From an uncultured bacterium (GTDB lineage: Bacteria > Lernaellota > Lernaellaia > Lernaellales > Lernaellaceae): a DNA stretch of 14,378 nucleotides. The notes under the pieces are model-generated. The model worked only from the letters and a program-made list of their open reading frames with translations, searched no databases and was not told the DNA's origin. The stretch is from assembly GCA_964534375.1 (NCBI GenBank), contig CAZHPN010000026.1:1-14378 (forward strand), in the 5' to 3' direction. This document shows, in pieces, positions 8,936 through 14,125 of this stretch. The stretch's first letter is position 1; each line of letters begins with the position of its first letter. Made by a program: the position numbers and the translations under genes.

Positions 8936-9049
8936 CGCGGAAAACGGGGTGCGGAAAAATCCTCCTCAAAAACGGCCGGCGGAAACTCTTGAGAACAAAG
9001 GATTCTTGAAGGCGTTTTTAGTGCGGAAAAATCATTAGTTTTTTCCGCA
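8936..9049. promoter_or_regulatory. res-like recombination region: 28-bp palindromic crossover-type site A (9022-9049) plus accessory half-sites
   Basis: TGCGGAAAAATCATTAGTTTTTTCCGCA at 9022-9049. Further GCGGAAA(A) half-sites, all in the same orientation, at 8937-8944, 8950-8959 and 8979-8985, directly upstream of the resolvase. Confidence 0.7.
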
Positions 9050-9099
9050 GCCGGAGCACCGCGGGAAAAAGGTGGAAGGCGCTAACGAAAAGCGTACTG

Positions 9100-9145
9100 C
9101 AAGAAAAGAAAGGGAACCCGCCAACCATCCGGGTGACGGGTTCCC
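9100..9145 (-). terminator. Rho-independent terminator after the DUF1566 gene
   Basis: Minus strand GGGAACCCGTCACCC-GGAT-GGTTGGCGGGTTCCC stem-loop followed by TTTCTTTTCTT. Confidence 0.75.
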
Positions 9146-9167
9146 ACAGAAAAAAAACGAACTATGA

Positions 9168-9872
9168 CTAACGTACGCAACGTGCGCCGTTGACGCCTGG
9201 GAGGCCGTGGTAGCTGACCACGCCAACGTCAAAATGGATGTACCACGCGGGGCCGTTGTCGGTGTTCGGGACCGCCGAGGACGACCAATAATTAGTGACG
9301 GCGCCTGAGATTTCTGGCGGCCAATAAACGCCGCCCGGCCCGGGACCGCCGAATTGGGGGCAACCATCATCACATGCGGCGTTCTCACAATTTCCATCCA
9401 AGCACGAATCGGTCACGCCGCAGGAACCATTCGTTTGGGTGGCCGCGCACCCCCGGATCAGGCTGCGAAGCTCGTCGATATCCGGCAACCGCCAGCCGGT
9501 ATAGCCGCCCCAACTCAGGCCCGCGCAGTAACTTTGCACATCCGGCCAACTATAAATGGTGGACCCAACTGTGGTCCCGTTCTGCCACATGTGACCGGTC
9601 GTCGGATCGGTCCATACGGTTTCCCCGGCGGTGTCGTCGTTGTCGTCATCGTCACTCGCTTCACATGGATTCGGAGCGCAAACGGTATTTCCGCCGAGCC
9701 AATGTCCGCCGCTACAGGCCGCCTGCGAAGTGATGGAGCATGCTGTTGACACGCAACACGCGCCCTCGGCGCTCGAAGAACTTTTGCTGCTGGCTGTGCC
9801 GCCGCACGCAATCAACAGGCCTACGCTCAGAGCGAGAAGGATGAGAAGGGCCCACAAGAAAATGTTTTTCAT
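9168..9872 (-). CDS. Lipoprotein with a Cys-rich GACC segment, acidic linker and C-terminal DUF1566 (Lcl-like, C-type-lectin fold) domain
   Basis: Signal peptide with lipobox LIAC; GACC..C....C...WLG..T.C..NPC segment; DDDDNDD linker; WTDPTTGHMWQ, YCAGL..GGYTGWRLPDIDELRSL, YWSSS, AW..HF..G and ARCVR motifs. RBS AAGGAG upstream of ATG 9872. Confidence 0.88.
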   Translation of the reverse strand: MKNIFLWALLILLALSVGLLIACGGTASSKSSSSAEGACCVSTACSITSQAACSGGHWLGGNTVCAPNPCEASDDDDNDDTAGETVWTDPTTGHMWQNGTTVGSTIYSWPDVQSYCAGLSWGGYTGWRLPDIDELRSLIRGCAATQTNGSCGVTDSCLDGNCENAACDDGCPQFGGPGPGGVYWPPEISGAVTNYWSSSAVPNTDNGPAWYIHFDVGVVSYHGLPGVNGARCVR

Positions 9873-9963
9873 TTGGAAACTCCTTTCAAGCCAGTTTTTT
9901 TGACGTTGCAATCGACCGAGATTGGTCGGCCGGCTGCCTCGGCAGTTGAAAAATTTTCCAACG

Positions 9964-12924: not shown

Positions 12925-13095
12925 GCGTTGCCTCCGGGAAATCGTGTCGCGGCGTTGCCGGCAAAGCCGATTGAACCAGGCGCTTTTGTTCACGGCTCAC
13001 AAGTTATTGTTGGGTAATTAAATACGCTGACCAATCGCTCGGCGCAAGTTCCTCTGAATCGACCGTTGCAGTGTCGTTTTTCCTGGCGTTAAACA

Positions 13096-13123
13096 GGTGC
13101 AAAAAACCAATGATTTCCCCGCA
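13096..13123. repeat. Degenerate 28-bp site C (inverted relative to A/B)
   Basis: GGTGCAAAAAACCAATGATTTCCCCGCA matches the reverse complement of site A at 22/28 positions, including the AATGATTT core. Confidence 0.6.
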
Positions 13124-13310
13124 ATGTTCCGCCCGCGTAGAACGGCCAACCCGCGCTTTCCCGGGCTTTCCGCCGGAAAAACGACGCGCTAGGATGCCCC
13201 GCAATCGACGAACAGCAGCCGGCCCGTGTGGTTTGTCTGAGATTCCGACTTTCCGGCAGCACGCGGCCGGGCAACTGGAACGCGGCCACTACCCGCATAG
13301 GGAGAGTTCG

Positions 13311-14084
13311 ATGAATTCAAAATTCGAAGCCCCCGAGTTCTTGAAGAACAGGTTCACTTGTTTACATGTAGAGTGCCACGCGGTGGCCCATCATGAATGG
13401 TGCCAGCTTTCGAGTCCCTCAAGTAAGGGCGGACATCGCCAGCTTGAAACAATCTTCGTCGCTATCTGTGGGGCGTGCCAAAAAAAAAGCATATGGCTCG
13501 CGGCGCATTTAATCGACCTCGAAAGCATGAGGCGGCCGCCTAGTCCAATCAGTATTCCCGATATCCCGGAGCCAGAGAGAAGAAAGGCCGAAAGCGCATC
13601 GCCGGTCAAACCTACCGCAAAAATTATCTTTCCCGTTGACCCAACTGGGCCGCTGCCCGTGGAGGACATGCCTGATGACGTCAAAGCGCTATATGACGAG
13701 GCCCGATCAGTTGCCCGAATGTCTCCAAAATCTGCGGCCGCCTTGCTGCGTCTCGCGGTTGAGACGCTGATGCCTCATTTGGGTGAAAAGGGGAAAAAGA
13801 CAAGACTGGTTGATAAAATTGGGAATCTAGTGAAGAAAGGTCTGTTAGAAAAGACGGTTCAAGAAGCGCTCGATTCGGTTCGAATAATTGGAAACGACGC
13901 CGTTCATCCCGGCAAAATTATTTTGGATGAAAATCCCGAGGTTGTGCCGCGGCTTTTTAATTGCCTGAACTACATTGTCGAGAAACAAATAACCGTCGGG
14001 AAGAGCCTGAAACAGTTATACGACTCCCTGCCCGAGGAAAAAAAGAAAGAAATTGTGAAAAGGGACAAAAGGCCTCTCGGTTGA
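13311..14084 (+). CDS. DUF4145 domain protein (HEPN-like) with an N-terminal Zn-ribbon-like region
   Basis: N-terminal FTC...C and CGAC cysteine pairs; MPDDVKALYDEAR...SPKSAAALLRLAVE; LDSVRIIGNDAVHPG (R-x2-GN-x3-H). GGGAGAG RBS upstream of ATG 13311. Confidence 0.88.
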   Translation: MNSKFEAPEFLKNRFTCLHVECHAVAHHEWCQLSSPSSKGGHRQLETIFVAICGACQKKSIWLAAHLIDLESMRRPPSPISIPDIPEPERRKAESASPVKPTAKIIFPVDPTGPLPVEDMPDDVKALYDEARSVARMSPKSAAALLRLAVETLMPHLGEKGKKTRLVDKIGNLVKKGLLEKTVQEALDSVRIIGNDAVHPGKIILDENPEVVPRLFNCLNYIVEKQITVGKSLKQLYDSLPEEKKKEIVKRDKRPLG

Positions 14085-14097
14085 TGAATCGCCGGGC

Positions 14098-14125
14098 TGC
14101 GGAAAAACCTAAAGTTTTTTCCGTA
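14098..14125. repeat. 28-bp palindromic site D (central AA, inverted relative to A/B)
   Basis: TGCGGAAAAACCTAAAGTTTTTTCCGTA, 24/28 identical to the reverse complement of site A, 13 nt after the DUF4145 stop. Confidence 0.8.

Follow-up and report, generated by a model that had tools for sequence, protein, structure and literature searches.

Palindromic 28-bp sites at the borders of surface-protein and defense modules, most likely the DNA sites of a now-broken small serine recombinase

RESULTS

A recombinase pseudogene and its upstream region

The window, the whole 14,378-nucleotide stretch of contig C26 analyzed here, belongs to the genome of an uncultured bacterium (G000, the source genome). 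It contains a pseudogene of a small serine recombinase of the resolvase/invertase type on the minus strand (positions 8462 to 8889, AIYARVST motif). The pseudogene matches PF00239 with an E value of 8e−30 and is also matched in both of its fragments; the assembly has no other PF00239 match. The catalytic domain is recognizable, with AIYARVSTGKQ in the translation; the C-terminal helix-turn-helix DNA-binding domain and the intact reading frame, both present in intact homologues of 193 amino acids, are missing. Translation frames, tblastn with intact homologues, and alignment place a frameshift near positions 8764 to 8776 and a cut at about residue 130. The gene is truncated by a 44-bp insertion-sequence end remnant (8447 to 8490), which is 80 to 98% identical over 44 to 46 bp to copies on 8 other contigs; those copies run on into a shared insertion-sequence interior, whereas the remnant in the window does not. 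Because it is frameshifted and cut by this remnant, the resolvase is dead.

The start codon of the resolvase gene lies at 8889, 132 bp from the first of the palindromes described below, site A, and a promoter region of about 130 bp links this site to the gene and its ATG. A promoter-like site (TTGACG-17-TACACT, 8903 to 8931, minus strand) stands 13 nt upstream of this start codon. A conserved region, flank-1 (8919 to 9021), is situated between the resolvase start and site A and is common to C26:15768-15835 (inverted) and to contigs C22, C62, and C68; on C62, the flank-1 copy is followed by a remaining 53 bp of the resolvase gene (85% identity). Within flank-1, an invariant 26-bp block adjoins site A, a small dyad, TTCCGCGGAA (8933 to 8942), abuts the −35 element of the resolvase promoter, and an extra half-site, TGCGGAAAAA (8950 to 8959), is found 72 bp before the start of site A. 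We also considered a Hix-like element in flank-1, taking the invariant block for the actual crossover site, and dropped it because its dyad is weak (7 of 9 arm positions).

Gene modules between the palindromes

The preliminary description had reported four intergenic 28-bp palindromes, and direct reading of the sequence bears this out. Site A (9022 to 9049, plus strand) is the dyad TGCGGAAAAATCATTAGTTTTTTCCGCA with a central TT on the plus strand. Site B (12029 to 12056, plus strand) likewise has TT on the plus strand, is in direct orientation with A, and matches it at 27 of 28 positions. Sites C (13096 to 13123) and D (14098 to 14125), assigned to the minus strand, have a central AA on the plus strand; D matches the reverse complement of A at 24 of 28 positions, and C, which is degenerate and inverted relative to A and B, at 22 of 28.

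The A-B module is a lipoprotein operon on the minus strand that has its own promoter and terminator, as had been proposed. It begins with a promoter-like site (TTGACG-16-TACAAT, 11981 to 11954), followed by the gene for a 635-amino-acid lipoprotein whose translation has the lipobox AFAAGC and which gave no family match in the profile search (11871 to 9964). Next comes the gene for a lipoprotein with an Lcl_C (DUF1566) domain (PF07603, E value of 1e−16), the lipobox LLIAC in its translation, and an acidic linker (9872 to 9168). An intrinsic terminator, a hairpin and then a U-run (9145 to 9112; fold of −27.1 kcal/mol, z of −3.65), closes the operon before site A. The B-C interval holds a DUF3800 protein gene (12196 to 12993, minus strand; PF12686, E value of 4e−11), for which PADLOC gave zero matches. 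Between C and D, a DUF4145 protein gene (13311 to 14084, plus strand; PF13643) matches the single-gene anti-phage system PD-T7-4 (PADLOC model PDLC04109, E value of 5e−65, model positions 3 to 208 of 211 covered), and a defense function is predicted for its product. The gene order that had been read at the locus (resolvase, A, two lipoproteins, B, a noncoding RNA [ncRNA] with DUF3800, C, DUF4145, D) stands, with the exception of the ncRNA: an Rfam search gave zero matches at gathering score or at an E value of ≤1.

A further copy, site E (C26 positions 15740 to 15767), lies about 1.6 kb beyond the end of the window. A scaffold gap of 10 N directly follows the window, and E is tied to the A-D array only across this gap. 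The modules joined at the sites are the lipoprotein operon, the DUF3800 gene, the PD-T7-4 gene, and the gene of an FGE-sulfatase lipoprotein. The sites bound both surface-protein and defense modules, with PD-T7-4 at the array in the window and a complete BilABCD system at a paralogous site; the defense cargo also includes an HEC-09-like gene, and related loci carry AbiE, HigB, RelE, and PIN toxin-antitoxin pairs. Five of the nine strong sites of the genome are found within about 6.7 kb, in a low-GC island (GC of 0.51 to 0.61 versus about 0.65 outside). We dropped an attempt to define the limits of this island by an empty site in family relatives, which are too distant (ADH 43 to 45% identical); in the synteny comparison, a LeuA-like gene was not found in these relatives at 1e−60. 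Half or more of the sampled words were contained in two of six sequencing runs.

Geometry and rarity of the palindromes

In each site of the window, two 13-bp arms resembling TGCGGAAAAAAC flank a central AA/TT dinucleotide (4 of 4 sites), and the sites can be described as 10-8-10 dyads or as imperfect 13-2-13 dyads. Ten sites of the genome, the nine strong ones and a degenerate copy on C121, include nine with AA/TT at the center and one, on C74, with AG. The polarity of the array is mixed, A, B, and E pointing one way versus C and D the other; A-B and C-D are direct pairs, and the inverted pairs include B/C, D/E, and A/C.

A pattern scan allowing ≤3 mismatches recovered A, B, and D and gave 0 matches in 200 shuffles. 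Site C is too degenerate for that scan and was recovered with a weight matrix (36.6 bits versus 24.6 bits for the best unrelated match in the genome). By this measure the 6.3-Mb genome has just nine strong copies (≥36.6 bits), the next best match reaching 24.6 bits, which rules out that the motif is scattered genome-wide as an ordinary operator, the outcome that the preliminary description had named as speaking against its own reading. Viral contigs gave 0 matches for both the palindrome pattern and the invariant block of flank-1.

The palindrome and the recombinase in other genomes

The same 28-mer is present in a Bacteroidales genome (G042) and in a Syntrophaceae genome. G042 has 10 copies at ≤2 mismatches, which form a perfect 13-2-13 dyad with the central AA as the sole asymmetry; a dyad of 12- to 13-bp half-sites around a 2-bp center is the geometry of a crossover site. 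One G042 copy lies 69 bp from an N-terminal remnant of a resolvase gene, and another adjoins the same remnant inverted. This remnant is 85 to 89% identical to intact resolvases of 195 to 198 amino acids. In a fourth lineage, G524, contig C275 encodes an intact orthologue (PF00239, E value of 1e−46; identity to P0004 of 65%), which a variant palindrome precedes at a distance of about 139 bp. The link between palindrome and serine recombinase, suggested at first by the window alone, thus recurs in three phyla (the G000, G042, and G524 loci). In G679, a resolvase gene whose product is 71% identical to P0004 accompanies a Phd-PIN toxin-antitoxin pair, and a related dyad flanks them in two copies of the same orientation.

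The half-site recurs as well. Its distance to the palindrome start is 72 bp in G000, 72 bp in five G042 copies, and 73 bp in G524, and it co-varies with the palindrome: half-site and proximal arm both read GTGGAAAAA in G524 and GCGGAAAAA in G000. Such co-variation at a fixed spacing points to protein recognition of double-stranded DNA.

The distribution of the site is patchy and crosses phyla. It is present in 1 of 40 relatives of G000; within the order of G042, 3 of 301 genomes including G042 have any match, and G042 alone has the site family. The palindrome (≤4 mismatches) occurred in 0 of 108 loci of resolvase relatives (633,516 bp), the window's own locus excepted, and 3 of 6 close homologues, on short contigs, had no comparable dyad. 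Among the best 80 of 567 metagenome relatives of the resolvase, four were 64 to 79% identical and lay on short contigs without the palindrome. A plasmid collection held zero resolvase relatives above 46% identity. Two candidates were set aside: a match in G043 was taken as chance (one match versus one control match), and the resolvase of G041, an enzyme of the IS607 type, has a different context and lacks a nearby palindrome.

The palindrome folds as a 10-bp hairpin (−12 kcal/mol). Could the copies then be REP- or MITE-like repeats or RNA hairpins (terminators or stabilizers) that are unrelated to the resolvase and adjoin it by coincidence or target preference? Their positions are consistent with this. 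Copies lie 13 to 14 nt past stop codons at D (13 nt after that of PD-T7-4), C22, and C74 and 6 nt past one in G042:C50, and in 7 of 9 cases (manual tally) the core has the same sense as the gene upstream of it. Five copies in G042 and the one on C74 have ordinary genes on both sides and no evident cargo, and several G042 copies, five of them between ordinary genes, are embedded in a repeat of about 105 to 165 bp, which resembles the spread of small repeats. Moreover, a loose-pattern scan of genome contigs gave at least 127 stretches, and most of those listed belong to an unrelated repeat family of uncultured Clostridia that fits the same pattern with another core; three of the stretches were followed up. 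However, the source genome has just nine copies, and in three phyla the 28-mer has been conserved together with its loop but without its flanks. Site C forms no hairpin (−2.7 kcal/mol, z of 0), A and B have no U-tail, and A is preceded by a separate canonical terminator; an RNA hairpin is therefore not needed at A and not possible at C. Together with the lone half-site, which co-varies with the arm at a fixed 72 to 73 bp, these observations make a repeat or hairpin origin distinctly improbable.

Reshuffling of flanks at the sites

The expectation that sequences are exchanged at the sites found support in their flanks: homology between copies does not extend beyond the palindrome's outer edge, and the flank types are combined differently. 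Flank-1 is joined to five different neighbors. Flank-2, a second conserved flank type adjoining the palindrome (13124 to 13226, plus strand; common to C121:15286-15370 in the same genome and to G006:C294:6769-6846 in another genus), is joined to three. The G042 copies pair two types of left flank with several types of right flank in various ways. The orientation of the core relative to the resolvase-side flank also varies (A, C22, and C62 versus E; C1 versus C42 in G042; C275 versus C475 in G524).

That homology breaks and flanks are reshuffled exactly at the site also bears on the possibility that the palindrome is not a recombination site at all, and that it is a transcription factor operator for horizontally acquired genes or merely serves the autoregulation of the resolvase. 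Its dyad symmetry would suit an operator, as would the location of site C in a divergent promoter region, that of site B 48 bp upstream of the −35 element of the lipoprotein promoter, and the small related dyad that abuts the −35 element of the resolvase promoter. Most copies, however, are located at the 3′ ends of genes or in the space that separates convergent genes, and the nine in all keep no set distance to promoters. We consider an operator very unlikely.

A different origin of the array would be a decayed pile-up of independent resolvase-bearing transposons or integrated plasmids with passenger genes, in which the palindromes are ordinary res sites and the cassettes never moved. In the genomes examined, no intact recombinase stands beside an array, and all resolvase copies next to the exact 28-mer are decayed (C26 and C62 of G000; C1 and C42 of G042). 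The layout resembles that of a classical res, in which the site precedes the gene, an accessory half-site accompanies it, and a dyad overlies the promoter, and one resolvase homologue has a plasmid-like setting, adjoining ParA-like and MerR genes. The adjacency of toxin-antitoxin genes, res, and resolvase is reported for Tn3-family transposons in the available text of 10.1101/848275. On the other hand, the Tn3-family transposase (PF01526) is found in 0 of the 4 palindrome-carrying genomes, and sites B, C, and D stand alone, with neither flank-1 nor a resolvase gene traceable beside them, and yet lie exactly at module borders. In addition, direct site pairs that are 2.2 kb (G042) and 1.5 kb (G679) apart flank single toxin-antitoxin modules. 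A pile-up of this kind thus appears unlikely to us.

DISCUSSION

The 28-bp palindromes are tied to a small serine recombinase that is now broken, most likely as its DNA sites. We think that they probably were the binding and crossover sites of this clade of recombinases and joined self-contained modules into an array that is now a fossil. We infer binding, central cleavage, and excision, integration, or inversion at the sites, which may have proceeded as follows. The clade would consist of Pin/Gin-like enzymes of about 193 amino acids, and the palindrome would correspond to site I in a res site. Both arms would be bound by a dimer of the recombinase, which would cut at the center with a stagger of 2 bp. 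The half-site 72 bp off and the small dyad over the promoter would form a res-like regulatory region, which may also repress the recombinase gene. Modules between direct sites (A-B and C-D) could leave as circles and integrate again at any of the other sites, and segments between inverted sites (B-C and D-E) could be flipped. Since the recombinase in the genome is dead, the array would be a fossil there unless an enzyme were supplied in trans.

Several observations count against this explanation. The exact 28-mer adjoins only decayed resolvase copies, the palindrome is missing from the loci of resolvase relatives covered here, some copies lack evident cargo, and site E is tied to the array across a gap. 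The variable orientation of the core cannot result from conservative exchange at an asymmetric central dinucleotide, and with the mixed polarity of the array simple cassette insertion alone is insufficient. The same polarity limits the preliminary description, which had proposed an integron- or pdif-like platform for gene capture. The geometry of serine recombinase sites, their link to the enzyme, and the defense and surface cargo agree with such a platform, but the array is not an integron-like series of direct repeats, because its mixed polarity allows inversions as well as excisions.

A more far-reaching hypothesis would be that of a cassette exchange system that works across phyla with a 28-bp 13-2-13 site and a half-site 72 bp away, and that excises, inserts, or flips defense, toxin-antitoxin, and lipoprotein modules in chromosomal islands. 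It would be the serine counterpart of integrons and pdif modules and the mechanism behind the linkage of recombinases and defense genes. We put this forward tentatively and regard it as possible but rather doubtful.

What could such arrays tell us? The locus and its relatives provide a conserved 28-bp candidate site, an accessory half-site, and module borders that coincide with the site, and the array may help to explain why small serine recombinases adjoin phage defense genes. The idea that these recombinases move or flip defense modules is now directly testable with two-site substrates and the intact orthologue. If true, a serine recombinase route would be added to the tyrosine routes, integrons and Xer modules, by which accessory gene arrays are assembled, and there would be a sequence signature for locating such arrays and new defense genes in metagenomes.

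Comparison with known systems

The res site of Tn3 and γδ has a 28-bp site I and accessory sites upstream of tnpR, in a three-dyad layout. The locus resembles it in its 28-bp dyad, presumably cut at the central dinucleotide, upstream of a recombinase gene with a PF00239 catalytic domain, and in sites that overlap the promoter, which implies autoregulation. Further half-sites lie between palindrome and gene, but their spacing is non-standard, and the accessory part is a single half-site at 72 to 73 bp and not two full dyads. Unlike in Tn3 and γδ, the carrier genomes (0 of 4) contain no DDE transposase of this family, many solo copies of the site I equivalent lie away from resolvase genes and border unrelated modules, and the enzyme is closer to Gin.

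Gin, one of the Hin/Gin/Cin/Pin/Min invertases, is the closest solved relative of the enzyme (4m6f, E value of 1e−26), and the source records call the resolvase homologues "DNA invertase Pin-like." According to Table 1 of PMC3985619, gix and hix cores have AAA/TTT at core positions 6 to 4 around the crossover dinucleotide. The palindromes have the same AAA/TTT, arms of 12 to 13 bp, and a 2-bp core, but they are 28 bp long and not 26 bp. As in multiple-inversion systems, several sites in both orientations lie in one segment beside a recombinase gene. In Hin/Gin switches, two inverted sites, aided by an enhancer, flank a segment whose flip alters a promoter-gene or gene-gene junction. Here, the sites lie between complete self-promoted genes instead of within genes or flanking a promoter, so a flip would not act as an expression switch of the familiar kind, and direct site pairs flank modules.

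In integrons, the tyrosine integrase IntI is encoded beside attI and acts with folded attC sites of variable sequence. In pdif/Xer modules, distinct XerC and XerD arms surround a 6-bp spacer, and the host XerCD acts on the site. The array is like both in that a recombinase gene lies at one end, a repeated site marks the module borders, often just past a stop codon, and the cargo consists of adaptive accessory genes including defense genes. It differs from both by a serine rather than a tyrosine recombinase, self-promoted modules, and mixed polarity, and from integrons also by one conserved double-stranded dyad in place of variable folded attC sites. Might the palindromes nevertheless be Xer-type sites that are served by a tyrosine recombinase? 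Their 28 bp can be read as 11-6-11, and the array resembles dif modules in that the sites at its module borders point both ways; in the available texts of PMC6449649 and PMC13141974, pdif sites bound modules on Acinetobacter plasmids, and dif modules have sites in both orientations. The two arms of the palindrome are identical, however, and not distinct XerC and XerD arms. The genome has 7 matches to the tyrosine recombinase family PF00589, none of them on C26, and the only one on a contig with a palindrome (C22) is about 11 kb away, whereas in three phyla the palindrome is linked at a fixed distance to the gene of a serine recombinase. We therefore regard Xer-type sites as very unlikely.

In the literature searched, we found no description of serine recombinase cassette arrays, and none of the publications containing both decamers was about recombination by title. 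A related association is RADS, in which small serine recombinase genes are reliably adjacent to anti-phage defense genes, and for which mobilization or inversion is offered as a hypothesis (PMC13552941, PLoS Biol 2026). In the available text of that paper, "recombination site," "inverted repeat," and "res site" have 0 occurrences each. The loci described here are like RADS in that a small serine recombinase gene lies beside defense genes (PD-T7-4, BilABCD, and HEC-09-like), and the canonical unit is likewise a cargo gene followed by a recombinase gene in the same direction. Beyond RADS as described in that available text, the locus in the window offers a candidate site and an architecture.

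A rare palindrome clustered in the window

The four 28-bp palindromes of the preliminary description were confirmed, coordinates included, by reading the sequence: site A (9022-9049), a TGCGGAAAAA-N8-TTTTTCCGCA dyad; site B (12029-12056; 27/28 to A); site C (13096-13123; 22/28 to the reverse complement of A); and site D (14098-14125; 24/28 to the reverse complement of A). The central dinucleotide on the plus strand is TT at A and B and AA at C and D. In a pattern scan, A, B, and D match the dyad with at most 3 mismatches and 0 of 200 shuffles match; the pattern read backwards, as a control, has 0 matches. 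A weight matrix from the sites gives nine matches in the whole 6.3-Mb genome (64% GC, 381 contigs), at 36.6 to 52.1 bits, the next best scoring 24.6. These are A to D, a fifth site past the window (E, C26:15740-15767, central TT on the plus strand), and one site each on contigs C22, C62, C68, and C74, the last with a central AG; contig C121 holds a degenerate tenth copy. The genome-wide scattering that the preliminary description had named as counting against its reading is absent, there being only nine strong copies in 6.3 Mb by the matrix, and we regard it as very improbable that the palindrome is an operator. The sites are real, rare, and clustered.

Scaffold C26 is 44,924 bases long, of which the window takes the first 14,378; its GC content is 0.51 to 0.61 from ~8000 to 15850 versus ~0.65 on both sides. 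A run of ~18 C closes the window (14361-14378) and may be an artifact; ten N follow (C26:14379-14388), marking an assembly gap. Because this gap separates the poly-C end from E, the membership of E in the array rests on scaffolding, as does the spacing between D and the gene that follows it.

The palindrome adjoins a decayed resolvase gene

The resolvase to the left of A is the assembly's only Resolvase-domain gene and also the sole clear tblastn match of intact homologues. It is a pseudogene on the minus strand that starts at 8889, with an AIYARVST motif, and shifts frame near 8764-8776. Its similarity ends at residue 130, where a 44-bp insertion sequence (IS) end fragment starts, of which eight other copies run on into the IS interior. 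Hence, the DNA-binding domain is lost and the gene is dead. A noncoding stretch of ~320 bp (8048-8375) separates the resolvase remnant from a nitroreductase-like fragment; it has paralogues 71 to 78% identical on C36, C73, and C194 (two on the latter) and matches neither Pfam nor Rfam.

An extra 60 to 130 bp on one side, here called flank-1, is common to A, E, C22, C62, and C68, five of the nine copies. At A, flank-1 is the stretch from the palindrome to the resolvase start and contains the putative, sigma-70-like resolvase promoter (8931-8903, TTGACG-17-TACACT), a small dyad, TTCCGCGGAA, adjoining its -35 element, and, at 8950, a lone TGCGGAAAAA arm placed before A, at exactly 72 bp from its start. 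The C62 copy of flank-1 runs into 53 bp of resolvase coding sequence (85% identity), and thus a second copy of the gene once stood there. All five loci show the order cargo gene, palindrome, flank-1, and, where surviving, resolvase, in a single direction. That the palindromes are Xer sites is the least probable of the alternatives, given that C26 carries no tyrosine recombinase gene and that the sole such gene on a palindrome-bearing contig (C22) is ~11 kb from the site.

Modules between the sites

Segment A-B holds a two-lipoprotein operon, encoding a 635-aa protein and an Lcl_C-domain protein, both with lipoboxes. As had been proposed, this module has a promoter and a terminator of its own, in the form of a promoter-like site (11981-11954) and a hairpin with a U-run (9112-9145) ahead of A. 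The noncoding RNA placed between B and C was not borne out, no Rfam family matching anywhere in 8000-14378. Segment B-C contains a DUF3800 gene, C-D a DUF4145 gene with a full-model match to the single-gene anti-phage system PD-T7-4 (E 5e-65), and D-E a gene for an exported FGE-sulfatase-domain protein. Elsewhere in the genome, the C22 palindrome lies 14 nt past the BilD stop codon, where a complete BilA-B-C-D system ends, and the C121 copy adjoins an HEC-09-like gene. The Bil genes (C22:31340-34199; L002 6041-8900, minus strand) form a ubiquitin-like conjugation anti-phage system (PADLOC E 5e-30 to 5e-125) and are adjoined by an XRE-type gene and a SNF2/BrxH-like helicase fragment; the whole resembles a defense island in a little-known phylum.

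If these were ordinary res sites, remnants of transposons or plasmids that have decayed, the enzyme-site link would be preserved and cassette exchange dispensed with. We consider this unlikely, as solo sites sit at module borders and a Tn3-type transposase was found in none of the 4 carrier genomes. Positions after stop codons also suit a REP/MITE-like repeat or an RNA hairpin, against which stand the separate terminator before A and the unfoldable site C.

Flanks are reshuffled at the site

Copies lose alignment similarity exactly at the palindrome's outer edge, and through it flank-1 is joined to five different neighbors. A second conserved type, flank-2 (13124-13226), lies beside site C and recurs after the degenerate C121 copy and after the single copy in a genome of a different genus (G006), where an Lcl_C gene occupies the other side of the site, as at A. 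A Bacteroidales genome (G042) combines two types of left flank with several of right flank, in several ways. Judged from alignments, which do not locate the crossover point inside the site, such reshuffling matches the outcome expected of exchange at the site. Flank-2 also contains a small dyad, TTTCCGCCGGAAAAA (window 13160-13174), and two ATCGAC copies ~30 bp apart (13176-13214), conserved in the two genera and in the second copy in the same genome; these may serve the recombinase as an accessory site or act as a portable promoter.

Related sites in other phyla

A scan of one genome per species was dominated by an unrelated Clostridia repeat; among the matches listed were also 28-mers nearly identical to the site, in G042 and in a Syntrophaceae genome (G041). 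The Clostridia repeat (L007-L133, uncultured Clostridia MAGs, several rabbit-gut assemblies) is a very abundant palindrome, TGCGGGGAAAAC-N4-GTTTTCCCCGCA, with conserved multi-hairpin flanks. It fits the loose pattern, but its core and flanks differ; we rejected it as a member of the same site family, and it resembles a MITE/REP family.

In G041, two copies are convincing and have a common right flank of ~60 bp. The ten copies in G042 (no more than 2 mismatches) have the consensus TGCGGAAAAAACA-AA-TGTTTTTTCCGCA, two perfect 13-bp arms whose sole asymmetry is the central AA. One is followed, 69 bp on, by a resolvase start with ~48 codons left; beside another, this flank and this remnant, now with stop codons, recur in the opposite orientation. 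The G042 resolvase remnant is 85 to 89% identical to the N termini of intact metagenome resolvases of 195 to 198 aa, which have 29 to 34% identity to the window's resolvase clade and a similar C-terminal helix-turn-helix. In five copies, a lone arm, TGCGGAAAAAAC, stands before the palindrome at a distance of exactly 72 bp. Neighbors include AbiEii with DUF6088, an HTH-RelE pair, and a Fic-like fragment, and a HigB-like toxin with an HTH-M78 protein lies between two direct sites 2.2 kb apart; five other copies stand between ordinary genes, as if a small repeat had spread. Seven of the ten (on G042 contigs C1, C6, C12, C42, C50, and C18) are within ~5 kb of a contig end, suggesting that strain variation or repeats break assemblies near palindrome loci.

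Of 401 genomes from the phylum of G041, close homologues of the window's clade are present in five, at six loci. Contig C275 of G524 carries an intact resolvase gene (PF00239, E 1e-46); a variant palindrome, CGTGGAAAAAGCTATAGATTTATCCTCA, lies ~139 bp upstream of the gene, with a lone arm, TGTGGAAAAA, placed 73 bp before this palindrome. Lone arm and proximal palindrome arm both read GTGGAAAAA here and GCGGAAAAA in the window; we count this co-variation as the best indication that a single protein encoded at the locus reads both elements. At a second locus copy in G524 (C475), the lone arm survives together with a palindrome that has degenerated. In G679 (C312), a resolvase pseudogene (71% identical to P0004, an intact ~193-aa homologue of the window's resolvase), a Phd antitoxin, and a PIN toxin lie between two direct dyads of related sequence, CATCCGGAAA-N5-TTTCCGGATG, with a third copy upstream. 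No such dyad was seen on the short contigs of G629, G709, and G589. In G629, a DUF4238 gene is followed after 18 bp, in the same direction, by the closest intact homologue found (G629:C2:3975-5410, L265; 87% identical to P0004), on a 7-kb contig on which no palindrome was seen.

A REP/MITE-like repeat or hairpin would suit the G042 repeats, yet the co-varying lone arm and the conservation of the loop across phyla oppose it, and we hold it to be distinctly improbable. The distribution of the site is patchy. Of 40 relatives examined of the genome that holds the window, 1 has it. In the order of G042, 3 of 301 genomes have any match, G042 counted, the other two being single matches with unrelated cores, and a G042-type resolvase was not found in those 301 at E ≤ 1e-40. 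The site is also absent from 108 loci of more distant resolvase relatives (633,516 bp).

Proposed mechanism and comparison with known systems

We consider that the sites are probably those of a small serine recombinase and delimit modules that include phage defense genes; integron-like gene capture is possible. The palindrome would be the crossover site, with two 13-bp arms for a dimer and a 2-bp center for the staggered cut. A-B and C-D, as direct pairs around self-contained modules, would be excisable as circles, and the inverted pairs B-C and D-E could be flipped. Binding, cleavage, and all recombination products are predictions from sequence. With the recombinase dead, the array would be frozen unless an enzyme acts in trans; every resolvase beside an exact 28-mer is decayed.

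In three genomes, copies differ in how the core is oriented to the flank on the resolvase side: A, C22, and C62 against E, C1 against C42 in G042, and C275 against C475 in G524. Since conservative exchange at an asymmetric center keeps flanks on their own side, these differences need another event; our guess is loop inversion by template switching in a hairpin. Nor can single-site circle insertion alone produce the mixed polarity. Also at odds with the proposal are the central AG at C74, the copies between ordinary genes, the decay of the resolvases, and the 108 loci that lack the site.

In the literature searched, no account of small serine recombinases with arrays of this kind was found, in agreement with the initial impression that this is not a described system. 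A cargo gene and a recombinase in one transcript are the layout for an enterococcal restriction enzyme, and G629:C2 shows the same layout; the text of that paper makes no mention of recombination sites (PMC13552941). The closest solved relative of the window's enzyme is the Gin invertase, and the gix and hix cores, as given in Table 1 of PMC3985619, have the same features as the window site, including A/T runs at core positions 6-4.
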